A DNA stretch of 64,000 bases, from IMG/VR virus record IMGVR_UViG_3300045988_155525. One strand, 5' to 3'. Source of the stretch: a virus. Position numbers and translations under genes: made by a program. Under the pieces are notes generated by a model. That model had not been told where the DNA came from. It saw only the letters and a list, made by a program, of their open reading frames with translations, and did no database searches. Shown here in pieces: positions 26,230 to 63,662 of this stretch (the first letter of the stretch is position 1; every line of letters starts with the position of its first letter).

Positions 26230-26628
26230 ATGCCTCGTAAAAAACAAGAATTACCTGATTTAAGTAAAACTAATATACTTAAACCAATTACATTAGATAT
26301 GATAGGTTCTAATGGTGACCCATGTTTTGGTAAGAATTATGATTTATCTACCGAAGAATGTAAAATATGTGGAGATTCAGAATTATGTTGTATTAAGTTT
26401 TCTAATTCTCTTGGTAAAACTAGAAAGGAGTTAGAGAAAGAGAATATCTATAAAGATTTAGATATCTTAATAGATAAAACTGCAGCTAAAAAAATGTTTA
26501 GAACTTTAAAACGTAAAGGTGAGGATAAAAAATCTATAATAGATAAATTACAAAAGAAATTTGAGTTAACCAGACAAGAAACTAGGCTTTTATATAAAGA
26601 ATTTTCAAATAAAAGTACCACTAAATAA
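26230..26628 (+). CDS. Hypothetical Cys-cluster protein
   Basis: DPCFGKNYDLSTEECKICGDSELCC suggests a possible zinc-binding element. Confidence 0.4.
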   Translation: MPRKKQELPDLSKTNILKPITLDMIGSNGDPCFGKNYDLSTEECKICGDSELCCIKFSNSLGKTRKELEKENIYKDLDILIDKTAAKKMFRTLKRKGEDKKSIIDKLQKKFELTRQETRLLYKEFSNKSTTK

Positions 26629-26638
26629 TATATCCATT

Positions 26639-27160
26639 ATGTCAAATTTATTATTTACAAAAGTAAGGAATGTTAAGGCTCCAGAAAGAGCCCATATAGA
26701 GGATGCTGGTATAGATTTTTTTGTACCAGAATTTGATTATAACTTTCTTAAGGATTTTGAAAATAAGAACAGATTAACTACTAAATCGGGTATTATAAAT
26801 TCTACTGAGATTTTGGTAGCTCCCCATGATAGAGTATTGATACCTAGTGGTATAAGGGTAATACTACATCCAGGTTCGGCTTTAGTTGCCTTAAATAAAT
26901 CTGGGGTAGCCACTAAAAAGGGTTTGTTGGTAACTGCACAGTTAATAGACCCACAATATACTGGGGAAGTACATATAGGGGTATATAACTCAGGTGATGA
27001 TAGTCAGATTATAAATTGTGGAGAAAAATTAGTACAGTTTATCCATATACCAATTTTTAGTTCAATACCCGAAGAGTTAGGTTTTGAAATATATGAACAA
27101 TATATTTCAAAAATGGGTTCGGATAGAGGAGATAATGGGTTTGGTTCAACTAATAAATAA
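26639..27160 (+). CDS. dut: Trimeric dUTP pyrophosphatase
   Basis: AGIDFF, SGIRVIL, GLLVTAQLIDPQYTGEVHIGVYN and DRGDNGFGST are the classic dUTPase motifs. Confidence 0.85.
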   Translation: MSNLLFTKVRNVKAPERAHIEDAGIDFFVPEFDYNFLKDFENKNRLTTKSGIINSTEILVAPHDRVLIPSGIRVILHPGSALVALNKSGVATKKGLLVTAQLIDPQYTGEVHIGVYNSGDDSQIINCGEKLVQFIHIPIFSSIPEELGFEIYEQYISKMGSDRGDNGFGSTNK

Positions 27161-27170
27161 AGTATAACAT

Positions 27171-28109
27171 ATGGATTCTAGAGATATAAAAGAGGAACCT
27201 AAACCAATTGCTGATTCCAAATATTTAGAAACTTTATATGGTTTACAAAAAGAACTTTTGGATAATTATATAAAGATTGAGGGGTTACCCATGTATCCAT
27301 TGGATATAAATACCAAAAAGTCTCAAATAATATTAAAGGATTTTGTGGGTAGGGTAATTGAGGAATTAGCTGAAGGTTATGAATCCCTATTAGCCGTAGA
27401 TGAGTTAACTCAAAAAAATGAGTTATGGGTAAATGAGATAAATGAAGTAGATTATATACAGACTTTAAATCATTTACAGAATGCAGGTGAAGAGATTGCT
27501 GATTCTCTTCATTTTATGTTAGAGTTACTGATATACTCTAATATCCAACCTAAGGACATAGATGATTTCATAGAAAAATACATTAAATATCAACACCACC
27601 CTATTACTACTAATGGTAGTGAAGTAAAAGAGTATTGGTATCAACTTTCAGAACAAAATATCTTAAGGAAGGCTATAGTAGTTGGTACCAATATGATGTA
27701 TGATAAGTTACCCATAGACTTAGAAAGTAACTTAAAGAAAACAGTAGATTTGGTACAAGATATAATTGATGATTATGAGGATTCCTATGAATTTATACAT
27801 AAGCATGTATTAGATATAAGGTATCTAAGTTGCGGTAGATATTATAGTCATGAGTTATATTACTCCTATAAGTATATGTTATGGGAAGTAACATATTGGT
27901 TGAATATAGCTAGGAACTTCTTAAAAAATAAGCCATGGAAACAATCTCAAATGATGACTAATGAATCTGGATATCAAGAAGCTATAATTATGGCCTTCTT
28001 AAGTATGATGGGATTATTCTTTAATTTAGGCTTAGTAGATTCTGATATATATTTCTTGTATTGGAAGAAAAATAAGGTAAATCAGTTCAGGATAAAATCT
28101 AATTATTAA
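27171..28109 (+). CDS. All-alpha NTP pyrophosphohydrolase (MazG / dimeric dUTPase / T4 gp56 dCTPase-like)
   Basis: LQKELLDNY..., acidic metal-binding helices RVIEELAEGYE and GEEIADSLHFMLELLIY, then NKPWKQSQ (the K-x-W-K signature region of dimeric dUTPases). Confidence 0.5.
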   Translation: MDSRDIKEEPKPIADSKYLETLYGLQKELLDNYIKIEGLPMYPLDINTKKSQIILKDFVGRVIEELAEGYESLLAVDELTQKNELWVNEINEVDYIQTLNHLQNAGEEIADSLHFMLELLIYSNIQPKDIDDFIEKYIKYQHHPITTNGSEVKEYWYQLSEQNILRKAIVVGTNMMYDKLPIDLESNLKKTVDLVQDIIDDYEDSYEFIHKHVLDIRYLSCGRYYSHELYYSYKYMLWEVTYWLNIARNFLKNKPWKQSQMMTNESGYQEAIIMAFLSMMGLFFNLGLVDSDIYFLYWKKNKVNQFRIKSNY

Positions 28110-28112
28110 TAG

Positions 28113-29081
28113 GTGATGGAGCAGTATTTAAATTTATTAGATAAGGTAACTAACCATGGTTATTATAAACCTTCTGCCAGGAAAGGTATGCCAGGTACTT
28201 ATGAAGTATTTGGTGAAATGTTAAGGTTTGATTTAACTGAAAATTTCCCCATATTAACAACTAAAAAAGTATACTTTAAAGGAGTAGTAGCTGAGTTACT
28301 TTGGTTTTTAAAGGGTAAAACTAATATCCATTACCTTTTAAAAAATAATGTACACATATGGGATGATGATGCCTATAAATATTATCTAAGGTTATGTAAA
28401 TACCGAGGTATAGAAGAAGAATATTCTAAAGAAAGGTTTATTAAGATGATAGAATCCTGTGATATTTGTATAACAGGATTAACAGGATTAGAAACTAATA
28501 TACCATTAATTGATGGTTCTTTTTACCATTATGGGGATTTAGGTTTTTCATATGGGCATCAATGGACTTATTGGGAACATAGCTTAAATCAGTTAGAACA
28601 GTTAATAGATGGTCTTATCGAAAGACCTAATTCTAGGTATCATGTAGTAACAGCTTGGAACCCTAATCAAATATTTCCCCTAGAAGTAGCAGTACCCCCA
28701 TGTCATATACTATTCCAATGTAATGTACGTAATAATAAGTATTTGGACTTAATAGTAACTCAACGTTCCTGTGATATATTTTTAGGGCTTCCATTTAATA
28801 TATCCTCTTATGCTTTATTAAACCATCTTATTTGTAGGCTTACTGGATATGAGCCAGGGGAATTAATATGGGTGGGTAACTCCATACATTTATATGAGAA
28901 TCATATAGAGGCTGCAAAAGAGCAACTAAAAAGGAAACCACTTAATAATACGGCTATAGTTAAACTTAAAGAAGAAACCTGTAAATACAAAAATTTATGG
29001 GATTTTGAAGTAAGTGATATCATACTAGAAGGATACCAATCCTTAGAATCAATTAAAGCTCCTTTATCGGTGGGTATTTAA
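28113..29081 (+). CDS. thyA: Thymidylate synthase (ThyA)
   Basis: Collinear with E. coli ThyA as recalled: MEQYLNLLDKV, FPILTTKK, AELLWFLKG.TN, GDLGFSYGHQW, PPCHILFQ, TQRSCDIFLGLPFNISSYALL, HLYENH. Confidence 0.85.
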   Translation: MMEQYLNLLDKVTNHGYYKPSARKGMPGTYEVFGEMLRFDLTENFPILTTKKVYFKGVVAELLWFLKGKTNIHYLLKNNVHIWDDDAYKYYLRLCKYRGIEEEYSKERFIKMIESCDICITGLTGLETNIPLIDGSFYHYGDLGFSYGHQWTYWEHSLNQLEQLIDGLIERPNSRYHVVTAWNPNQIFPLEVAVPPCHILFQCNVRNNKYLDLIVTQRSCDIFLGLPFNISSYALLNHLICRLTGYEPGELIWVGNSIHLYENHIEAAKEQLKRKPLNNTAIVKLKEETCKYKNLWDFEVSDIILEGYQSLESIKAPLSVGI

Positions 29082-29087
29082 TAAGGT

Positions 29088-29849
29088 ATGAGAAAGAAGA
29101 TTTTTAATGATTCCTTAGAAGCCTGGGAGAAAATAAATGAGGCTTTTATAAAAGGAGAAAAAGGTTGGGATATTATTATAAAAAATAAGGCTCTGTATTT
29201 ATATGATTTAGTAATTGAGGTAGCTAATCCAAGGCTACCTCAAAATTTTGATTTTGGAAGACATTTTAACTATACCATATCCAAATGGAATAATCTAATA
29301 GGTAATTATATTAATAAACCAGATTTACAAAAAGTAAAATCCTGGGTATCTAAAGAAGAAGAGAAAAATAATAAGGTATATAATATACCATTATCATTTG
29401 ATAATAAACATGGTCATGGTAAGAGTTGTTTATTATCTATGGTATTTTCTAGAAGAATGGGTGATGTATTACCTTCAGTAGTGGTATTTTTGAGAGCTTC
29501 TGAAATTACTAAAAGATTGATATGTGACTTATTATTATTTCAAAGGGTAGGTGAATATATTTATGGAGAAGATGATTTTAAATTAGTTATCCATTTCAAC
29601 CAGGTATTTAATGATGATACTGTATTATTAATGTATGATGTACATCGTGATATCAAGAGTATATTGGGTTCAGTAACTAACAGTGATAGAAAAAGGTATC
29701 TATTAGAAAGGTTAGAATATTTAAAGAGTTGTAATCCAGATGATATTAAGTATAAGGTACATAAAAGAGCTCTTAAAGTATTGAGACCAGATTTATTTAA
29801 ATACCCAAAGACACTAGTTAGAGATTGTAAGTTACATATTACAGAATAG
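29088..29849 (+). CDS. Hypothetical protein, possibly a very divergent ThyA-fold paralogue
   Basis: Weak pattern only: GKSCLLSMVFSRR...VVVFLRASEITKRLICDLLLFQRVGEYI...LVIHFNQVF, compared with PC..QF...QRS.D...N...L...H.Y. Confidence 0.3.
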   Translation: MRKKIFNDSLEAWEKINEAFIKGEKGWDIIIKNKALYLYDLVIEVANPRLPQNFDFGRHFNYTISKWNNLIGNYINKPDLQKVKSWVSKEEEKNNKVYNIPLSFDNKHGHGKSCLLSMVFSRRMGDVLPSVVVFLRASEITKRLICDLLLFQRVGEYIYGEDDFKLVIHFNQVFNDDTVLLMYDVHRDIKSILGSVTNSDRKRYLLERLEYLKSCNPDDIKYKVHKRALKVLRPDLFKYPKTLVRDCKLHITE

Positions 29850-29897
29850 ATAAATATACTAACTTTTTTTTATTAAAACCATTAAACATTTAAAAAC

Positions 29898-30686
29898 ATG
29901 AGGATTTATTCAAATGGGTATGAGTTAATATCCGAAACTGGTCGTAATTTATGGGAAATGGGTTCCGAAGTAAAGCCAAAAACTTATCAAAATAAAGTTA
30001 TAGCTGGTAATGATGATTTTATTACTAAAGAACTTATTTGTGAACAATATTGTTTAACAAAATTGGAAGATGAAGATATCTTATTTGTATTTACAAATTG
30101 TAAAGATTGGGCTATAGCTGAATTTAAAGAAAGGATTGATTCCAGGAGAATTAACCCTGGTGAGGCTTATAAATTGAGGTGGGAAATTTGGAATGATTTT
30201 TTGACCAATATAGATACTCATGAAATAGGTAGTGATGTATATAGTGTACCTAAATTTGATTATACATATTCCGAAAGGATTAATACAGAAGTAGATTACA
30301 AGGGATTAAAGTATCCTAAATTAGAAGCTATAATTAGGTTGTTAGAAGAAGACCCAGATACTAGGAAAGCAGTATTGAATATATTTGGAACTATAGATTC
30401 TAACTATTATGATGGTTATCATAGGATACCATGTTCTATGTATTATGATTTTCTAATCAGAGAGAACCCAAGAGGAGAAAAGCAATTGAACTTATGTTAT
30501 CATCAAAGGAGTTCTGATTTTATAACTCATTTTGGAAATGATGTATGGTTAGCTTGGCAATTAAAGGATTATGTTGCAAATAGGTTAGGAATTAAGCCTG
30601 GGTACTTATACCATACTATTGATTCTTTACATGTGTACAAAAAGGATTGGGTGAAATTAAAAACTTCCCTCAATAGTATGGTATAA
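29898..30686 (+). CDS. ThyA-superfamily pyrimidine C5-transferase, closest in pattern to T4 gp42 dCMP hydroxymethylase
   Basis: EEDPDTRKAVLNIF, RIPCSMYYDFLIR, LNLCYHQRSSDFITHFGNDVWLAWQL, IDSLHVYKKDW. Asp sits at the ThyA-Asn177-equivalent position. Confidence 0.6.
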   Translation: MRIYSNGYELISETGRNLWEMGSEVKPKTYQNKVIAGNDDFITKELICEQYCLTKLEDEDILFVFTNCKDWAIAEFKERIDSRRINPGEAYKLRWEIWNDFLTNIDTHEIGSDVYSVPKFDYTYSERINTEVDYKGLKYPKLEAIIRLLEEDPDTRKAVLNIFGTIDSNYYDGYHRIPCSMYYDFLIRENPRGEKQLNLCYHQRSSDFITHFGNDVWLAWQLKDYVANRLGIKPGYLYHTIDSLHVYKKDWVKLKTSLNSMV

Positions 30687-30766: not shown

Positions 30767-30841
30767 TGAGCTATAGTATAATGGTTAGTACAGGGGATTT
30801 TGATTCCTCTAGTCCTGGTTCAACTCCAGGTAGCTCAACCA
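30767..30841 (+). tRNA. tRNA-Gln (anticodon UUG), CCA encoded
   Basis: Hand-folded cloverleaf. Acceptor tgagcta/tagctca, D stem gtat/gtac, anticodon stem gggga/tcctc with loop ttTTGat, T arm cctgg-ttcaact-ccagg. Confidence 0.85.
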
Positions 30842-30846
30842 AAAAT

Positions 30847-30932
30847 GCTCGGATGGTGGAATAGGTAGACACGTGGGACTTAAAATCCCATGGACAGCGA
30901 TGTTCGTACGGGTTCGATTCCCGTTCCGAGTA
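30847..30932 (+). tRNA. tRNA-Leu (anticodon UAA), class II with long variable arm
   Basis: Acceptor gctcgga/tccgagt, anticodon stem tggga/tccca with loop ctTAAaa, long variable arm, T arm acggg-ttcgatt-cccgt. Confidence 0.85.
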
Positions 30933-30955
30933 CTACAATTTAAATAATTATTATA

Positions 30956-33223
30956 ATGGTAACCAGATATCATATAATAAGAACCTTTAGTGAATTAAAA
31001 CAATTAATAGAAGCATGCTCAAAAACTGGGTATGCTTCTGTTGACTTTGAAACTAATGCTAAAGGTATCTATACAGATGAATTTAAACCAACCATATTAT
31101 CAGTATCCTTTCAAGTTGGTTCAGGTGTAAGTATCCCATTACAACATTTTGATGAATCAGTTTCTTTTTTACAAAAAAATGATTTATGGTTATCATGGTT
31201 ACAATATTTCGGTAGGAAAGTAATAGAAAATCCAAACATAGTAAAGGTAGGTTGGAATTGGAAATTTGATAATCAGATATTTGTAAAGTATGGTATATAT
31301 GCTAGGGGTACTGTAATTGACGGTATGTTAGCAAAATATCTCTTAAATGAAGAAAGACCTAATGGTCTGAAAGATATGGTTAGGAGATATTTGCCAGAAT
31401 TTGGTGATTATGAAAAGTATGATAAATTCGATAATATACCATGGGATAAAAAACCATTAGAACCATTATGTAGATACGGTTGCATGGATGTAGATTTTAC
31501 CCTACGTTTATCTATATTTTTGGAGGCTAAATTAATAGAGAAAGGTTTTTATAGTTTATATAGGCATCTAATAATGCCTGCAAGTAAAGTATTGCAATCA
31601 GCTGAATGTCATGGTTTACCTCTAGATAAAGAGTTGAATGAATCTTTGCAGGTAAAATATAATAACTTAATAGAAACCTTTACTAATAAGCTTTATTCAA
31701 TTCCACAAGTAATAAAATATGAAAAATATACTAAAAAGGAGAGAAAAGATAAGTATATTAATAAACTAAGGGAAGAAATTGAAGAATTAAGTAGTCAAAC
31801 TGGGAAAGAGAGGCAAATAAAAACCAGAGAACAAAAAATATCCCGGGTTTTGGTTGGGGAATATGTTACTAAAGAAGAAAAAGCCTTAGATAATCCAGTA
31901 AACTTTAAATCAACCAAACAGATGATTGATTTATTGTTTATATCTCCCAAAGGGTTCAAATTTCCAATATTAGCTTATACCAAAGATGAGAAGACCAAAA
32001 GGGATACTTCCAACCCTAGTACTTCAGAGGATGTTTTGGTCAAGCTAAAGGCTTATGATAAATCTAGTTTTATAGATACTTTATTGGAATTGAGGGGTGT
32101 ATCAACTATAAATTCCACTTTTATAGTAGGATTAGGTAACCTTATTCAAAGTGATGGTTGTGTACACCCAACATTTCTAATACATGGTACAACTTCTGGA
32201 AGGTTATCATCTAGGGAACCCAATGGTCAAAATATACCCAAGACTATGGTTAACCCCGATGTAAAACTTCAATTTATAACTCCCCCAAATAAGTTATTTT
32301 TAACTTATGACTACTCTCAAGCAGAATTACGAATATTAGCCCATTTGGCTAAAGAAGATACCATGCTAGAGTGGTTTAGAACTGGTAAGGATATTCACTT
32401 AGCATCCGCTTGTAAAAAATATCATGAAGATTACGATAAGATAATAAAAATCTATGAAGATGAACAACATCCAGAACATAAACTTTGGAAAAAAAGAAGG
32501 AAACAAGCTAAAACCATAAACTTCGGTATAGTATATGAACAGTCTGCTCCTAAATTAGCAGAATCTCTTTCAACTCCAGAAGAAGTAGTATCAGCAGAAG
32601 AAGGTCAAGAATTTCTGGATGATTATTTTTGTACTTTTCCAAAGATTAAGAAATTCATGGAAAAGCAACATAAATTTATGGAGAAAAATGGATATTGTGT
32701 ATCTTTATTTGGTAGGAGGAGAAGATGTCCACAAGTGTACTCTGAAAAGTATGGGGAATATTTAGAGGCTTTGAGACAGAGCACAAACATGCCATGCCAA
32801 TCTGCAGCATCAGATATGGCTTTATTTGCATCTGTTATAGTTTATGAAAAGGTAAAAAAAGGAGAATTACCCCCAATGGATGAAGTAGATACTGTACATG
32901 ACTCAGTATATCAATTCATTGAACCCAAGTATTTAACTCCAGATACTATATATGGTATATGGGATATTTGTCGTAATCCATCTACTAAAAAGTATTTTGG
33001 ATTTAGTATAGATGATGTTGATATGTCCATGGATTTTACTGTGGGTAGGAATATGGCGGAAGAGTTACCCTATATACCAGGTTATGATTATTCAAAACTT
33101 TTAAGAGAAGATTTTGATATAAATGAATATTATGAGGAACATAAAAAGACCCGGGATATAGCCATTAAAGAGTATCCTAATATATTTAAAGAAGACTTTT
33201 CTATGTCATGGAGAAAAAGATAA
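30956..33223 (+). CDS. Family A DNA polymerase with 3'-5' exonuclease domain
   Basis: Exo I SVDFETN. Pol motif A DYSQAELRILAHL, motif B RRKQAKTINFGIVYEQS, motif C TVHDSV. Confidence 0.9.
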   Translation: MVTRYHIIRTFSELKQLIEACSKTGYASVDFETNAKGIYTDEFKPTILSVSFQVGSGVSIPLQHFDESVSFLQKNDLWLSWLQYFGRKVIENPNIVKVGWNWKFDNQIFVKYGIYARGTVIDGMLAKYLLNEERPNGLKDMVRRYLPEFGDYEKYDKFDNIPWDKKPLEPLCRYGCMDVDFTLRLSIFLEAKLIEKGFYSLYRHLIMPASKVLQSAECHGLPLDKELNESLQVKYNNLIETFTNKLYSIPQVIKYEKYTKKERKDKYINKLREEIEELSSQTGKERQIKTREQKISRVLVGEYVTKEEKALDNPVNFKSTKQMIDLLFISPKGFKFPILAYTKDEKTKRDTSNPSTSEDVLVKLKAYDKSSFIDTLLELRGVSTINSTFIVGLGNLIQSDGCVHPTFLIHGTTSGRLSSREPNGQNIPKTMVNPDVKLQFITPPNKLFLTYDYSQAELRILAHLAKEDTMLEWFRTGKDIHLASACKKYHEDYDKIIKIYEDEQHPEHKLWKKRRKQAKTINFGIVYEQSAPKLAESLSTPEEVVSAEEGQEFLDDYFCTFPKIKKFMEKQHKFMEKNGYCVSLFGRRRRCPQVYSEKYGEYLEALRQSTNMPCQSAASDMALFASVIVYEKVKKGELPPMDEVDTVHDSVYQFIEPKYLTPDTIYGIWDICRNPSTKKYFGFSIDDVDMSMDFTVGRNMAEELPYIPGYDYSKLLREDFDINEYYEEHKKTRDIAIKEYPNIFKEDFSMSWRKR

Positions 33224-36403: not shown

Positions 36404-37307
36404 TAAGTTATTATTATTGATAGATGGTTCTAATCTAGCATATAGGGCTTTTCAAAAATTTGAATTGTTGAAGGCTAGGGATGGTAGAAAAACCGGGTTA
36501 ATATATGGATTTATGAGATTACTTAATTCATATATTACTAGGTTCAGACCTACTTATGTTATAGTGACTTTTGATACCAAGAAAAGTAAATCATCAAATT
36601 TTAGAAACGGTTTACTTGGAGGTTATAAAATACACCGAAAAAATAACCTGTCTATGGATTATGAAGAATTCAATAGACAGGTTAGGTCGGTTAAAAAAAT
36701 GTTAAAATACCTTAATATCCCTGTAGTATGGGATTCAAAGGGGTTAGGTCATGAGTCCGATGATTATATAGGTTACTATGCTTTAAAACACAAAGGTAAA
36801 GTAATTATAATATCTTCAGATAAAGACTTTTGTCAGTTAATCAGTAAGAATATAAAGATATATAACCCTTTCAAGGAAACCATAATTCAGGAAAAGACTT
36901 GTATGGATGTAATGGGGTATAACCCCAATGAGTGTGTGGATTACCTATGTTTAATTGGTGATAAATCTGATGATATACCTGGATATATAGGGATGGGTCC
37001 AGTAAAAACTAGGTCATTTTTAAATGAATTTGGTTCCATAGAAAATTTCCTTAGTGATGATACTAAAGAATTTAAGGGAATAGATAGAGAAGGACTAAAA
37101 GACCTTTATGAAAGGAATAAGACTCTTATAGATATAAGAATAGCTTTAGAAAAATACCCATTGAAAAATATACCTATAATATATTCAAAGGTAAACAAAA
37201 TTCAGAGAGGTAAATTAAGAGAAGAATTTAAGAAATACACTTTAAGTTCTTTTATGACAGACAGCTTTTTAAAACCCTTTTTAAAATTAAGACCATGGAG
37301 AAAATAA
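36393..37307 (+). CDS. 5'-3' exonuclease / flap endonuclease (T4 RNase H-like)
   Basis: LLLIDGSNLAYRAF, IISSDKDFCQL, LIGDKSDDIPG. Confidence 0.8.
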   Translation: MSTDKLLLLIDGSNLAYRAFQKFELLKARDGRKTGLIYGFMRLLNSYITRFRPTYVIVTFDTKKSKSSNFRNGLLGGYKIHRKNNLSMDYEEFNRQVRSVKKMLKYLNIPVVWDSKGLGHESDDYIGYYALKHKGKVIIISSDKDFCQLISKNIKIYNPFKETIIQEKTCMDVMGYNPNECVDYLCLIGDKSDDIPGYIGMGPVKTRSFLNEFGSIENFLSDDTKEFKGIDREGLKDLYERNKTLIDIRIALEKYPLKNIPIIYSKVNKIQRGKLREEFKKYTLSSFMTDSFLKPFLKLRPWRK

Positions 37308-37951
37308 AAGTAACCTTAACTGGACCTAGTGGAGTAGGTAAAACCACTTTAGCAAAAGAAATATCTAATATGTTTACCATACCTTTTATATCTGGTTCTT
37401 ATTCTGATTTAGTACCAGAAACTAGAAATGAAAGGCATGAGGATATGATTAATAAAGAACCTAAAATTATCTTTGAGCAAGATATGCAGGTTCTTTGTAA
37501 AAGGAGGAATGCTTTTAATGTTACGGATACATTCGTATCTGATAGGAGTTATATCGATTCTGCAGCCTACATTATAAATAAATTATCTCATAGATACCCA
37601 GAGTGTGAAATAGATAGTTTTTGTAATTTATGTAAAGCATTAACTAAACAAACCACTCATATTATATTTATCCCATTTTCCAAAAACTTTATGAACCATT
37701 GGGAGATGGAGGATAATAATAAAAGGGTATTGAATAGGTATTATCAATTTGAGGTATCTCAAGTTATATTTGGGTTACTTGATTTATGGGGATACCGTAA
37801 TAAATGGTCATATTGTACCAATACTGTATCAGATGCTGGGATAATAACTATAGAAGATAAGGAAATACCTATATTAATTCTTGATGAATTAGACTTCAAT
37901 AATAGAGTTTCTATTGTTAGAAGGTTCTTAAAATCTACAGAAAATTTATGA
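37295..37951 (+). CDS. P-loop nucleoside/nucleotide kinase (dNMP kinase-like)
   Basis: P-loop LTGPSGVGKTTLAKE. SDRSYIDSAAY resembles dNK/TMPK lid-region patterns. Confidence 0.55.
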   Translation: MEKIKVTLTGPSGVGKTTLAKEISNMFTIPFISGSYSDLVPETRNERHEDMINKEPKIIFEQDMQVLCKRRNAFNVTDTFVSDRSYIDSAAYIINKLSHRYPECEIDSFCNLCKALTKQTTHIIFIPFSKNFMNHWEMEDNNKRVLNRYYQFEVSQVIFGLLDLWGYRNKWSYCTNTVSDAGIITIEDKEIPILILDELDFNNRVSIVRRFLKSTENL

Positions 37952-59264: not shown

Positions 59265-60275
59265 ATGAAGACAAAATTGAGTGTATTAGGAGTATGTGGA
59301 GCTCAAGGAGCTTTATTATTCCCCTTTAGGAAACAATTGTTGGCTAATATTGAGCCAAGACCCATTTTTCATACTAAAAATGAAGAACAATGGAAGCTTA
59401 ATTTTAAAGATATTCCATTTTTAAGGAGTTTAGAACAGTATAATGGTCCTAATCCTGACATAATTTTGGGTTCTCCCTCCTGTGGACATAGTAGTGTATT
59501 CAGTTATTCAAGGAAAAAGAGGTTAGGAAACCCAAAAGAAGATAAAACCCTGAATTTGTTTGTGGAATCCATCCTAAAATTTAAGCCCAAAGTGTTTTTA
59601 TTAGAGAATTTACCCAAATTAATGGATGTTATACCTCAAAAAGATTGGGAAAAAACCTTACCTGGTTATAATATAATTACACATTGCCATTCGGTAATAG
59701 ATTTTGGTAACTCCCAAAAATCAAGAAAAAGATTAATTTTAATAGGGGCCAGAATTAATTCTAGAATATCAATAGAGAATTTTTTAAATATATTCCAAGT
59801 AACTACTCCACGATTAGTTTCTGAAATTCTAGAAAAGGTTAGAAATGATTATAATTTTAGAGAAGAACCAAATAAAGTTCTTAGTATGTATCATTATGCT
59901 GATAAAAGTAAGACTAACTTATCAGTTGAACAAGTTCAAAATTTATGGAATACAGAATTTAAAAATGAGTATAGGTGGCCAATGAAAAATCATAAGATGG
60001 TAACCTTACCAGGAGTATATAGAAATCAACTTAATAGTTACCCTTTAACCATAAGACCTGCTAATAGGCAATTTAATCCAGATGGTTCAATCATAGGTTT
60101 AGAGGACACTAGAATTATAATGGGTTTCCCTAAAAAATTTAAAGTGTATTTTGACCCAAATAATAGGACCTATTGGTTAAATAAAGGAAGAAATACTTTG
60201 GCAAAAGGTTCGGTATATGAGGTAGGGGTTTGGTTTAAAAAATGCCTTAGGATGGCAACCAAAACTAGGGCCTAG
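59265..60275 (+). CDS. DNA (cytosine-5)-methyltransferase-like protein, no cognate nuclease seen
   Basis: Motif I-like LGVCGAQGA, motif IV-like GSPSCGHSSVFS, motif VI LENLPKL, motif VIII QKSRKRLILIG, motif IX/X-like TRIIMGFPKKF and LAKGSVYEV. Confidence 0.55.
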   Translation: MKTKLSVLGVCGAQGALLFPFRKQLLANIEPRPIFHTKNEEQWKLNFKDIPFLRSLEQYNGPNPDIILGSPSCGHSSVFSYSRKKRLGNPKEDKTLNLFVESILKFKPKVFLLENLPKLMDVIPQKDWEKTLPGYNIITHCHSVIDFGNSQKSRKRLILIGARINSRISIENFLNIFQVTTPRLVSEILEKVRNDYNFREEPNKVLSMYHYADKSKTNLSVEQVQNLWNTEFKNEYRWPMKNHKMVTLPGVYRNQLNSYPLTIRPANRQFNPDGSIIGLEDTRIIMGFPKKFKVYFDPNNRTYWLNKGRNTLAKGSVYEVGVWFKKCLRMATKTRA

Positions 60276-61166: not shown

Positions 61167-63662
61167 ATGCCAAGAAAGGATAAGATAAAAGAACAGAAAT
61201 ATCTTAATCAGGAACAACTAAAGACTTTAGCAAAGGTAAGTAAAGATGTATTTTTCTTTTCTACCTTTTGTTATGTTGTAAATCCTGTAACTGGTATGGT
61301 TAAATTTGATTTATACCCATATCAAAAATCAGTATTGTATCAGTTTTTGAAAGAGAGGTTCAATATAATCCTTAAGTTCAGACAAGCTGGTATAACTGAA
61401 TTGATTGCTATGTATTGTTTATGGTTAACCATGTATCACCCAAATAAAAAGGTTAACATTATTTCAATCAAGGATACAGTAGCAAAGAAAGTTCTTAAAA
61501 AAATCAAGTTCATGTATAAAAATCTACCTTGGTATTTACAAACACCAATTACCAATGGTAGATTTGGAGAATATGGTTCAGCATCTACAATTGAATTTTC
61601 AAATGGGTCAATAATAGAATCCATACCTACCTCTGACCAAGCTGGTCGTTCTGAATCTCTTTCTTTATTGGTTATTGATGAAGCAGCTATAGTTAGGTGG
61701 GCTTCTACTATATGGGCTTCTGCATTCCCAACCCTTTCAACTGGTGGTTCAGCTATTGTAAATTCTTGTATCACTGGAGATACTCAGATAATCGGCAAAG
61801 ATGGTTCCTTTAGGGTTGATTCTATATGTCCAAAGACTTTTGGTAAGATGGACATATCTCATCTTGGGCTAAAAGTATTATCACATACAGGTAAGTGGCA
61901 GAGAGTACTTGGTTCCGTAAATAAAGGTGTACTGAAAACTTGGGAAGTTCATAATGAACAAGGTAAAGTTATTAAGTGTACTCCAAAACATAAGCTATAT
62001 ACCATAGAGGGTTGGTTACCTGTTTCAGAAATAATCAAACGAGATATACCAGCTATATTTTATCATACTGGTATAGGTGACCTGGAGCAGAATCCAGTAA
62101 CTATAAAACCCAAGAAAGAAATATGTAAACCTATACCAGGCTATCCAAACTATGAAGTATCCAACTGGGGGAGAATATTCATTATAAAAAATGGGACAAG
62201 GATAGAGAAGCTACCAAGACCATGTTCAGGTAGGGAACGATATCTTAATATTCAGCTTTGGAATCAAGGTCAAAAGAAAAAGATATGTGTCCACAATTTG
62301 GTGGCTAAAGTATTCTTAGGAGAAATTCCAGAAGGGTATGTAGTTGACCACATTAACAACAATCCTTCTGATAACTATGTAACCAACTTACAGATAGTTA
62401 CAGTAGCTGAGAATGGTAAAAAAGCTGCAAAACATTCTTATGGAATGAGGCTTGGGTCTAAATTGAAAGGTGGATTCAACTACGATTTAAGAGTGGTAGC
62501 TTACATAAGATATCGTTATCAGGAACTTGGTTACTATTATGGAGTATTAGAGAAGATATCCCAGGAGGTTGAGAATAAGTTCGGAGTTAAGCTGAGTAAA
62601 CCTTATATTCAATGTGTTGTATCTGGTAAACGTGGTACTAGTATATACCTTTCTAAGCTAAAAGTAGTTAGGGAGTATTATGATACCATTTATGATATTT
62701 GTGTTGAAAATGATGAATCTTACCTCATAAATGAAGACTATGTGTCTCATAACACGCCTTACGGTATAGGTAATTTCTTTCATGGTACTTGGGTAGATGC
62801 TTTATCTGGTGGTAACCCATTTAACCCAATAAGGTTATATTGGCAAATGCACCCAGAAAGAGATGAAAAATGGTATCTAGAAATGTCAAGTGCTCTTGGT
62901 CCTAAAAGAACTGCACAAGAAATAGATGGTGACTTTTTATCTTCAGGTAATACAGTATTTGATTTAGTTGATATAAAAGCCATAGAAGATACTCTTAGTG
63001 AATATACTCCAATTAAAACTAGGTTAGGAGGACAATACCGAGAATTTAACGAACCAATAGATGGTACAGATTACTATATAGGAGCAGACTGTGCAACTGG
63101 TAGAGGTACAGACTACTCCTCTTTTACTTGTATGGATTCCAAAGGAGAAGAACAAGTAATATACAAAGGTAAGATACCACTAAACCAGTATGCTAAACTT
63201 CTAGGAGATACTGGAGAAAAGTTTAATTTTGCCAAAATTGCTCCAGAAACCAATGATATTGGTATGGCAGTAACTTTACAACTTCAAGATGAAGGTTATC
63301 CTAACTTATACTTCTCTACAAAACTTCTGAAAAATAAAAAAGGAGGTAGACCAGAAGAAGAAAAAGTACCTGGATGGTTAACTACTCAGAAAAATAGGAG
63401 CCTAATTATTGAAAGCTTAGAGAAAGACATAAGAGAAGATTTGTTAATAATCAAAGACCCATTTTTTGTACAAGAAGCCTATACATTCATATATGATGGT
63501 TTAGGTAGACCAGTTGCTAGGGGTAAACATAAGTCATTAAATTCTTCAATTGATATAGATTTAGAAGCTCAGGCTTATTCTGATGATGATATATTTGGCA
63601 AAGCTATATGTAACCATATAAGAAAATCCCCCAGAAATGATACCATTGTTTTACCTCTGTAA
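61167..63662 (+). CDS. terL: Terminase large subunit, interrupted by an in-frame intein
   Basis: ATPase motifs KFRQAGITE and LLVIDEAA. The extein junction reads ...GGSAIVNS|TPYGIGNFFHG. C-terminal nuclease half. Confidence 0.85.
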   Translation: MPRKDKIKEQKYLNQEQLKTLAKVSKDVFFFSTFCYVVNPVTGMVKFDLYPYQKSVLYQFLKERFNIILKFRQAGITELIAMYCLWLTMYHPNKKVNIISIKDTVAKKVLKKIKFMYKNLPWYLQTPITNGRFGEYGSASTIEFSNGSIIESIPTSDQAGRSESLSLLVIDEAAIVRWASTIWASAFPTLSTGGSAIVNSCITGDTQIIGKDGSFRVDSICPKTFGKMDISHLGLKVLSHTGKWQRVLGSVNKGVLKTWEVHNEQGKVIKCTPKHKLYTIEGWLPVSEIIKRDIPAIFYHTGIGDLEQNPVTIKPKKEICKPIPGYPNYEVSNWGRIFIIKNGTRIEKLPRPCSGRERYLNIQLWNQGQKKKICVHNLVAKVFLGEIPEGYVVDHINNNPSDNYVTNLQIVTVAENGKKAAKHSYGMRLGSKLKGGFNYDLRVVAYIRYRYQELGYYYGVLEKISQEVENKFGVKLSKPYIQCVVSGKRGTSIYLSKLKVVREYYDTIYDICVENDESYLINEDYVSHNTPYGIGNFFHGTWVDALSGGNPFNPIRLYWQMHPERDEKWYLEMSSALGPKRTAQEIDGDFLSSGNTVFDLVDIKAIEDTLSEYTPIKTRLGGQYREFNEPIDGTDYYIGADCATGRGTDYSSFTCMDSKGEEQVIYKGKIPLNQYAKLLGDTGEKFNFAKIAPETNDIGMAVTLQLQDEGYPNLYFSTKLLKNKKGGRPEEEKVPGWLTTQKNRSLIIESLEKDIREDLLIIKDPFFVQEAYTFIYDGLGRPVARGKHKSLNSSIDIDLEAQAYSDDDIFGKAICNHIRKSPRNDTIVLPL
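61767..62753 (+). mobile_element. Class 1 intein (329 aa) carrying a NUMOD4 + HNH-type homing endonuclease
   Basis: N-terminal CITGDTQIIGKDG (block A) and CTPKHKLYT (TxxH, block B). HNH region PGYPNYEVSNWGRIF...VHNLVAKVF...VVDHINNNPSDNYVTNLQIVT (about 62130-62430). C-terminal YDICVENDESYLINEDYVSHN|T. Confidence 0.8.

Follow-up and report, generated by a model that had tools for sequence, protein, structure and literature searches.

Most of the pyrimidine modifications found in phage DNA take their starting chemistry from homologues of thymidylate synthase (TS). Within this superfamily the base recognised reportedly depends on Asn or Asp at the position of Asn177 in Escherichia coli ThyA, which mutagenesis published in 1992 by Liu and Santi, by Hardy and Nalivaika and by Graves is said to have established as the base determinant. 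It is textbook knowledge that Asp at this position marks cytosine, and the presence in one phage of both ThyA and a paralogue that modifies deoxycytidine monophosphate (dCMP) is already known from T4. Here we describe a divergent phage enzyme of this kind, encoded on a stretch of 64,000 nucleotides of viral DNA (IMG/VR record IMGVR_UViG_3300045988_155525), the whole of which is called the window below. The open reading frame (ORF) at 29898..30686 on the plus strand (262 amino acids, ATG at 29898, stop codon included at 30686) codes for an Asp-type TS-superfamily enzyme, TS-D. With confidence that is about evenly balanced, we propose that ORF 29898 is an active folate-type enzyme that takes dCMP in place of dUMP (deoxyuridine monophosphate) and most likely yields 5-hydroxymethyl-dCMP, or something derived from it, for the phage DNA.

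The residues that set the characterised relatives apart have been described in some detail. Hydroxymethylases carry Asp or Glu three residues before the catalytic cysteine (Cys-3) and a Ser-x-Tyr motif, linked to water activation, and the exchange D145N inactivates the dCMP hydroxymethylase (dCH) of T4; the C-terminal tail, for its part, seals the active site for methylation (PMC6400193). MilA has been reported with Asp at Cys-3, and the flavin-dependent 5-hydroxy-dCMP synthases carry a diagnostic Asn at ThyA position 169 (D169N) (PMC13326640); this flavin branch was only recently reported, with structures released in 2025 and a paper in 2026. An Arg and Ser pair is the signature of deoxyribose-type enzymes, and Lys with Ala, as found in MilA, admits ribose (PMC5175136). 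Asp at the ThyA 177 position has been used as a predictor of cytosine (PMC8670742, PMC13326640, bioRxiv 10.1101/2024.12.05.627091), and ThyA position 147 is another at which contigs with and without modification differ (PMC8670742).

Fold, active site and spread of the Asp-type enzyme

ORF 29898 has the TS fold and belongs to the ThyA/dCMP-hydroxymethylase superfamily, whose catalytic residues it carries. It matches Pfam PF00303 (Thymidylat_synt; E=5e-16, 59.1 bits against a curated cut-off of 24.3) and PHROG 160 'thymidylate synthase' (4.5e-25). Its AlphaFold2 model has a predicted local distance difference test (pLDDT) score of 94.6, and the top 50 PDB matches listed for this model are all TS-superfamily entries, led by MilA and the HY126 dCMP hydroxylase AfhB and followed by thymidylate synthases. 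The translation contains the core strings RIPCSMYYDFLIR, LNLCYHQRSSDFITHFGNDVWLAWQL and IDSLHVYKKDW that had been quoted in a first-pass annotation, and the E. coli ThyA and T4 gp42 strings given there agree with the fetched sequences, gp42 reading NMRSNDVVFGFRNDYAWQKY.

That annotation had aligned an Asp by eye with ThyA Asn177 and gp42 Asp179, and the computed alignments bear it out. In a phmmer comparison with PDB thymidylate synthases HQRSSDFITHFGND pairs with YQRSADMGLGVPFN free of gaps, and a MAFFT alignment with E. coli ThyA (L004), T4 gp42 (L003), the window's ThyA, the Xp12 TS and SPO1 gp29 gives, again gap-free, the common register R204-S205-x-D207-(7 residues)-D215 = R166-S167-x-D169-(7 residues)-N177. 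Read directly from the codons, RSSDFITHFGNDV occupies 30507-30545 and Asp215 is encoded at 30540..30542 (+). A proper alignment could have put Asn there, as in canonical thymidylate synthase (EC 2.1.1.45), but the position holds Asp215 in every alignment. Conservation was counted over 126 representatives, each full-length and drawn from clusters at 50% identity, the most distant being about 31% identical; all 126 carry this Asp, which is therefore a fixed trait of the family and not a chance substitution. The invariant Asp argues for cytosine-type specificity of ORF 29898.

The remaining active site is kept to a similar degree. The annotation had sought the nucleophile in an 'IPCS' motif, and this was correct by alignment: Cys179 (codon 30432..30434, +; RIPC at 30423-30434) corresponds to E. 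coli Cys146 and T4 Cys148 and is present in 126/126 representatives. The phosphate-binding pair Arg204 and Ser205, as well as Tyr122 and Tyr124, are equally invariant; Arg156, the counterpart of the partner-subunit Arg126' of ThyA, and Asp207 at the pterin-binding position (codon 30516..30518, +; ThyA Asp169) are each found in 125 of the 126. Glu75 (=E58), Trp98 (=W80), Tyr124 (=Y94) and His245/Tyr247 are further kept residues, and the ThyA Trp83 position is Phe, still hydrophobic. Judged by these identities, the residues required for folate-dependent one-carbon transfer are kept, and the prediction that ORF 29898 is a folate-type enzyme modifying dCMP at C5 is well supported. Because Arg156 and Ser205 form the deoxyribose-type pair, dCMP is the more probable substrate than cytidine monophosphate (CMP); we rejected a CMP-specific reading on finding this pair and not Lys/Ala. 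The annotation's proposal of action on dCMP by hydroxymethylation or methylation thus stands as to the substrate (Asp215, Arg156/Ser205), and its two products are left as a choice, since the signature of neither is present.

What departs from the known enzymes is concentrated around the nucleophile. Arg176, at Cys-3 (codon 30423..30425, +), is Arg in 126/126 representatives, and the same position is Leu143 in ThyA, Asp145 in T4 gp42, Asp in SPO1 gp29 and Asn in the Xp12 TS, so that Arg176 is the residue by which the clade departs from all characterised classes. Besides Arg176 and Tyr122, the polar residues Tyr183, Tyr201 and Arg127 are invariant and specific to the clade. His211, in 112/126 representatives, stands at the position of ThyA Gly173, and the position of ThyA His147 is Ser or Thr.

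Public records of related phages label the Asp-type gene plain 'thymidylate synthase', which would suit a redundant or degenerate thymidylate synthase acting on deoxyuridine monophosphate (dUMP), or an inactive paralogue. This is very improbable: the specificity position is an invariant Asp and His147 has given way to Ser/Thr, the catalytic residues are strictly conserved in more than 120 divergent clusters, and the scores against the NCBIfam thymidylate-synthase equivalogs lie far under what those models require (51.7 where the cut-off is 174.6, and 19.2 where it is 108.4). The strict conservation of catalytic residues also led us to reject a pseudoenzyme.

The clade is large. A word-index search with ORF 29898 returned 1243 clusters at 90% identity, and an exhaustive search of representatives returned 292 clusters (50% identity) at E<=1e-10; the phages concerned are human-gut phages, Clostridium perfringens phages and many Gordonia and Streptomyces phages. 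A clade profile gives its own distant members 119-283 bits, the Xp12 TS 64 and ThyA or gp42 52-54, with the window's ThyA likewise between 52 and 64; the clade thus branches off on its own, at a roughly equal distance from all characterised classes. The searchable literature holds neither this Arg-type, tail-less clade, nor its obligate-looking cryptic partner, nor the spread of the module over phages of Firmicutes, Actinobacteria and Proteobacteria. The motif R[IV]PC[ST] was not found in the searched supplements of the MetaGPA and 5-hydroxycytosine papers, and our literature searches found neither DNA modification in C. perfringens phages or the named distant phages nor a primary paper for PDB 9IQU/9IQC or AfhB.

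The choice of product

By its sequence, ORF 29898 matches none of the signatures that mark the four product classes characterised so far. With the T4-type dCMP hydroxymethylases it shares the specificity Asp and the catalytic Cys (Asp215, Cys179), and with the Xp12-type methylase the specificity Asp. Beyond the conserved His the protein runs on for 17 amino acids (clade median 12, range 7-24), as against 57 in E. coli ThyA, 63 in the window's ThyA and 30 in T4 gp42; the long tail of canonical ThyA and of the Xp12-type methylase, which the alignment shows to be ThyA-like, is thus missing, and Leu143 is replaced by Arg176. By analogy with ThyA, tail length is taken as a proxy for competence in hydride transfer. 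As for the flavin-dependent branch, the ThyA 169 position holds Asp207, not the diagnostic Asn; 5-hydroxylation is unlikely since this Asp is retained, and a 5-hydroxylase was rejected as a candidate. The product may arise by hydroxymethylation or by methylation, or may be of a new kind.

We favour a hydroxymethyl-type product because there is no tail for hydride transfer, position 143 is charged and the nearest structures are of the hydroxymethylase and hydroxylase types. Some indirect experimental support for cytosine modification comes from MetaGPA, in which Asp-177 TS homologues were enriched in cytosine-modified contigs (PMC8670742; bioRxiv 10.1101/2024.12.05.627091), as was a neighbourhood of TS, deaminase, PRA-PH/MazG and PolA (bioRxiv 10.1101/2024.12.05.627091); the enzymes in those studies may lie outside this clade.

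The alternative of an Xp12-like methyltransferase, which would make 5-methyl-dCMP so that 5-methylcytosine replaces cytosine or, after deamination, feeds the pool of deoxythymidine triphosphate (dTTP), is in our view unlikely. In its favour, N177D alone reportedly turns thymidylate synthase into a dCMP methylase (Liu & Santi 1992); five of seven deaminase-linked Asp-177 TS homologues that were tested made 5-methyl-dCMP (bioRxiv 10.1101/2024.12.05.627091), and the same TS, deaminase, PRA-PH/MazG and PolA neighbourhood surrounds distant members of the clade. The missing acidic, water-activating residue at Cys-3 and the Phe that keeps the Trp83 position hydrophobic also fit methylation, as does the failure to find a glycosyltransferase among the scanned window ORFs. 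Set against this are the lack in the clade of the approximately 55-residue tail common to ThyA and the Xp12 enzyme, and the 64 bits of the Xp12 TS, which bring it no closer to the clade profile than ThyA and gp42. The linkage to dihydrofolate reductase (DHFR) and/or a deaminase is likewise missing, for tblastn found neither in the 64-kb window with the Xp12 DHFR and three deaminase queries, taken from Xp12 and from Gordonia and Streptomyces phages. A homologue of C5 DNA methyltransferases encoded in the genome would be redundant beside such an enzyme, and the assayed enzymes may not be members of the clade.

Returning to the hydroxymethyl-type product, several observations count against it. 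The acid at Cys-3, verified by alignment in T4 gp42 and SPO1 gp29, is replaced by the invariant Arg176, and in place of Ser94-x-Tyr96 stands Tyr122-Thr123-Tyr124, in which the final Tyr is kept and Thr123 could, to judge by the alignment, be the structural equivalent of Ser94. Because the acidic-residue signature failed, we put the preference for hydroxymethylation no higher than about even. The searched literature contains no assay of any member of the Asp-type clade. A glycosyltransferase or another enzyme acting on hydroxymethyl groups was not found among the scanned window ORFs, and neither was a TET-like enzyme, DHFR or deaminase; the family scans covered part of the window's ORFs, and the window may itself lack part of a genome of about 72 kb or more. 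Likewise, tblastn with T4 beta-glucosyltransferase, the Xp12 HAD hydrolase, DHFR and dCMP deaminase gave nothing significant in the window. In actinophage and metagenomic loci a gene of the dCMP-deaminase family lies between the TS gene and PolA, an arrangement that a preprint ties to 5-methyl-dCMP producers (bioRxiv 10.1101/2024.12.05.627091). Finally, the C5-cytosine DNA methyltransferase homologue of the window (59265-60275, +; PF00145 2.5e-12; TIGR00675; unusual motifs PSCG and ENL), 64% identical to an annotated one in the related phage MT121964, would be without a substrate if every cytosine were C5-substituted, and it is thus hard to square with full replacement.

A cryptic partner in a conserved module

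The first-pass annotation counted TS-D as the second member of the superfamily in this DNA and missed a third one, encoded between ThyA and the Asp-type gene. This cryptic TS-fold protein, X (29088..29849, +; 253 amino acids), has no family match in Pfam or NCBIfam, but its AlphaFold2 model (pLDDT 93.5) finds TS-superfamily structures in every significant PDB match (E<=0.001), with template modelling (TM) scores of 0.45-0.53; MilA is best at 3.6e-6, followed by 9iqu (HY126 AfhB), T4 dCH and viral TS. Against BFVD the closest entries are uncharacterised phage proteins, then TS and dCH. Its invariant Cys114, Arg136 and Asp147 are in register with C146, R166 and N177 of ThyA. At the ThyA Asp169 position the partner family has Glu in its gut-phage members and Tyr in those from actinophages, which makes a ThyA-like pterin contact doubtful.

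A profile scan for related loci gave close relatives only, and the neighbourhood was compared in 80 IMG/VR loci, all from this one group of gut phages, with 6 kb on each side of the Asp-type gene. A homologue of X adjoins the Asp-type gene in all 80, mostly as two tandem paralogues (for example L007 4204-4959 and 5201-5926), and ORF 29088, not ThyA, is the conserved partner of the Asp-type gene. Taken alone, a comparison of the partner-family profile with that of the close Asp-type family falls short of significance (E=0.2, probability 0.3%). The hidden Markov model of the gut partner family scores the proteins upstream of the Asp-type gene in actinophages and in a Brevundimonas phage weakly (3.6-8.5 bits); after these weak scores, an additional homologue search and hhalign related the actinophage upstream family to it at a moderate level (E=5e-5, probability 67%, 230 columns). 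The actinophage partner family can in turn be aligned, with Cys, Arg and Asp again in register, to the Asp-type family, a weaker relation (E=3.6e-4). This comparison and the structure matches later supported the Cys/Arg/Asp register of the partner.

These features raise the question of whether the two proteins make something else together. We consider it unlikely that the system is a two-protein one whose product is unlike 5-methyl-, 5-hydroxymethyl- or 5-hydroxy-dCMP, with the partner a new catalytic branch of the TS fold. Slightly more doubtful still is the specific proposal that the Asp-type enzyme and its partner jointly make an undescribed C5-modified dCMP. In one route, a nucleophile other than water or hydride would capture the exocyclic-methylene intermediate, with Arg176 binding an anionic co-substrate; in another, the partner would perform a second covalent step on the first product. 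Arg176, Tyr122, His211 (112/126), Tyr183, Tyr201 and Arg127, unmatched in the characterised classes compared, speak for a joint product, as does the failure of all four class signatures; so does a partner that retains Cys/Arg/Asp, neighbours the enzyme in actinobacterial, Clostridium and gut phages alike and is doubled in most gut relatives. The argument is drawn purely from sequence and context, however: genes making a co-substrate were not identified, Arg176 could merely reshape the water network, and the homology of the partner to the actinophage family is the moderate profile match given above. If a new C5-modified deoxycytidylate were indeed made, abundant phages of the human gut, of clostridia and of actinobacteria would carry a new base in their DNA.

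The genes around this pair form a recurrent module. Upstream lie a small Cys-rich ORF of 132 amino acids (CFGK...CKICGDSELCC; 26230-26628, +), directly upstream of the deoxyuridine triphosphatase (dUTPase) in 78/80 relatives, the trimeric dUTPase itself (26639..27160, +; PF00692 1.4e-11, PHROG 135, NCBIfam dut; 77/80) and an all-alpha nucleoside triphosphate (NTP) pyrophosphatase of the dimeric-dUTPase/MazG-like type (27171..28109, +; PF08761 1e-6, PHROG 12184 7.6e-15; 79/80). The C-terminus of this pyrophosphatase aligns with that of T4 gp56, a deoxycytidine triphosphate (dCTP) pyrophosphatase (dCTPase), at E=1e-3, and by analogy with gp56 ORF 27171 is a candidate dCTPase supplying dCMP; neither it nor the C5-methyltransferase homologue has a sequence match in the PDB. 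At the downstream end the family A DNA polymerase PolA (30956..33223, +), recognised by tblastn to the PolA of relatives and distant phages, is found in 76/80 loci, and in L086-L088 and L097-L099 the TS gene is followed by a PolA that is either annotated as such or marked by Pfam. C. perfringens phage P21 and Gordonia phage Cozz also have pyrophosphatase homologues upstream of X, and the whole order of pyrophosphatase, partner, Asp-type TS and PolA recurs in P21, in KimJongPhill, Cozz and Strzyga (phages of Streptomyces, Gordonia and Brevundimonas, respectively) and in metagenomic contigs. Further downstream in the window, a P-loop protein resembling nucleoside monophosphate kinases (37295..37951, +; PHROG thymidylate kinase 1e-8, guanylate kinase 1.8e-6; Pfam AAA_28, with weak dNK and cytidylate-kinase matches) may be the kinase for modified dCMP.

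From fold, residue identities, conservation and gene order we infer a substrate, a cofactor, a product, an order of steps and incorporation into DNA that would run, ahead of DNA replication, as follows. The gp56-like pyrophosphatase (27171) would convert dCTP to dCMP; Cys179 would attack C6, and the one-carbon unit of methylene-tetrahydrofolate would pass to C5. The P-loop kinase (37295) and host enzymes would raise the C5-substituted dCMP to the triphosphate, which the phage DNA polymerase I (30956) would incorporate into phage DNA. The window's ThyA would make dTMP in parallel, as td does beside gene 42 in T4, and the cryptic partner 29088 may catalyse a further step on the nucleotide that TS-D would modify, or serve as a subunit.

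ThyA is the least constant part of this scheme. The annotation noted that the neighbouring ORF keeps the ThyA-type PFN, and it does: ORF 28113 (28113..29081, +; 322 amino acids, long L. casei-like form; PF00303 6.5e-86) reads ...GLPFN..., has Asn at the specificity position and scores 284 bits with TIGR03284 against a cut-off of 108, as expected of a canonical ThyA. By its length and best NCBIfam model it is of the Firmicutes-like long form, and blastn against E. coli genomes gave no match. ThyA occurs within the fetched flanks of three of the 80 loci, one being the window's own contig (the others L057 3936-4910 and L070 3665-4624), and none was found in the first 57 kb of a related 75.5-kb record. 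The window's ThyA, with an insert of about 50 amino acids, sits in the slot of the first cryptic-partner paralogue of most relatives.

That 77 of the 80 relatives lack ThyA in the fetched flanks and keep the module would fit a product that is not for DNA, the module instead reshaping the nucleotide pools by draining dCTP or turning cytosine nucleotides into thymidylate for an AT-rich genome. A genome of 27-35% G+C, the C5 DNA methyltransferase homologue, which implies unmodified cytosine in phage DNA, and the deaminase genes beside distant members point the same way. We nevertheless regard this as improbable. A second route to thymidylate would be redundant because the window has ThyA and dUTPase, and tblastn with the three deaminase queries found no deaminase in it. 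Tight linkage to the phage's own DNA polymerase, as seen here, is moreover typical of base-replacement systems.

The window covers most of the genome of a contractile-tailed phage, with sheath, tape measure, baseplate and endolysin genes. The closest GenBank phage records are faecal phage contigs with about 67% protein identity, which places the phage in the human gut; an identical copy of the Asp-type gene occurs on IMG/VR contig L006, and the metagenome-assembled genome bins that hold relatives are mostly of Clostridia. In 29850-29900 no recognisable Shine-Dalgarno sequence precedes the ATG of ORF 29898 (…ttaaaaacATG), which would be unusual in a Firmicute host, the kind that these bins suggest. 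Between the Asp-type gene and the polymerase gene lie tRNA-Gln(TTG) (30767-30841, +) and tRNA-Leu(TAA) (30847-30933, +), both overlapped by a minus-strand ORF (30809-30973) that is probably spurious. In several relatives the PolA match falls into two pieces about 0.9 kb apart or begins 2-3 kb downstream of the TS gene (L001 10895-14146, which is MT121964; L007; L015; others), as if a mobile element such as an intron, an intein or a homing endonuclease had entered the polymerase gene or the DNA just before it. In the metagenomic, actinophage-like contigs L097/L098 (8344-10920) and L099 (7479-10022) the PolA downstream of the module has an N-terminal domain of the uracil-DNA-glycosylase family (PF03167), and a gene for a MafB19-type deaminase lies ahead of it. 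The large terminase subunit of the window (61167-63662, +; 831 amino acids) contains an in-frame HNH endonuclease domain (amino acids 253-493) between its N- and C-terminal parts; an intein is one possible explanation, fusion with a homing endonuclease another.

A modified cytosine, should this be the product, would bear on restriction and CRISPR evasion, on the sequencing and cloning of phage DNA, on host-range engineering and on new nucleotide-modifying enzymes; C. perfringens phages of the clade are used for biocontrol. The conserved residues of the clade provide predictions that can be tested directly.

Comparison with described enzymes

Among structures, the best Foldseek matches of ORF 29898 are the CMP 5-hydroxymethylases MilA/BcmA (5JNH, 5B6D; E=4.9e-15, TM about 0.7), which share the cytosine-specific Asp. 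MilA differs in Lys133'/Ala176 for ribose and in the Asp reported at Cys-3 (PMC13326640), and it is an enzyme of an antibiotic pathway, not of a phage. The 5-hydroxy-dCMP synthases RB69 gp48, DLP3 gp80 and HY126 AfhB (9IQU/9IQC) resemble ORF 29898 in fold (TM 0.67-0.80), in a similar short length, in the specificity Asp and in a short C-terminus, but they have Asn at 169 and Glu at 143 and use flavin and O2, whereas the clade has Asp and Arg at these positions.

E. coli ThyA shares with ORF 29898 the catalytic Cys, Glu58, Trp80, Tyr94, Arg126', Arg166, Ser167, Asp169, His207 and Tyr209. At about 17% identity, it is set apart by Asn177->Asp, Leu143->Arg, His147->Ser, Gly173->His and the loss of the tail. 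The dUMP hydroxymethylase gp29 of SPO1 is, like ORF 29898, a phage TS-superfamily enzyme, and it makes a modified pyrimidine nucleotide before replication; unlike ORF 29898, it keeps the uracil-type Asn as its specificity residue, has Asp at Cys-3 and carries a long extension at its C-terminus. The 5-methyl-dCMP synthase that Xanthomonas phage Xp12 encodes resembles ORF 29898 in its specificity Asp, catalytic Cys, R-S-S-D and non-hydrophobic Cys-3 residue (Asn), and differs by its long tail and by a gene that adjoins those for DHFR and dCMP deaminase, neither of which tblastn detected in the window.

The enzyme of T4, gp42 (EC 2.1.2.8; 1B5D, 6A9A), offers a parallel in both protein and setting. 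It has the same fold, catalytic Cys and specificity Asp with identical R-S-x-D spacing, the pterin-site Asp (D171/D207), a Ser/Thr that follows the Cys, an Asn just ahead of the specificity Asp and a short C-terminus; T4, like the window, also encodes a canonical thymidylate synthase of its own, along with a kinase and a pyrophosphatase of the gp56 type. The two are nonetheless far apart, with about 20% identity and 52.5 bits to the clade profile, where members reach 119-283. The essential Asp145 of gp42 is Arg in the clade, Ser94-x-Tyr96 is Tyr-Thr-Tyr and Gly175 is His. No glucosyltransferase was found in the window, the tail of the clade is shorter still than that of gp42, and the clade, unlike gp42, has a conserved cryptic TS-fold partner gene.

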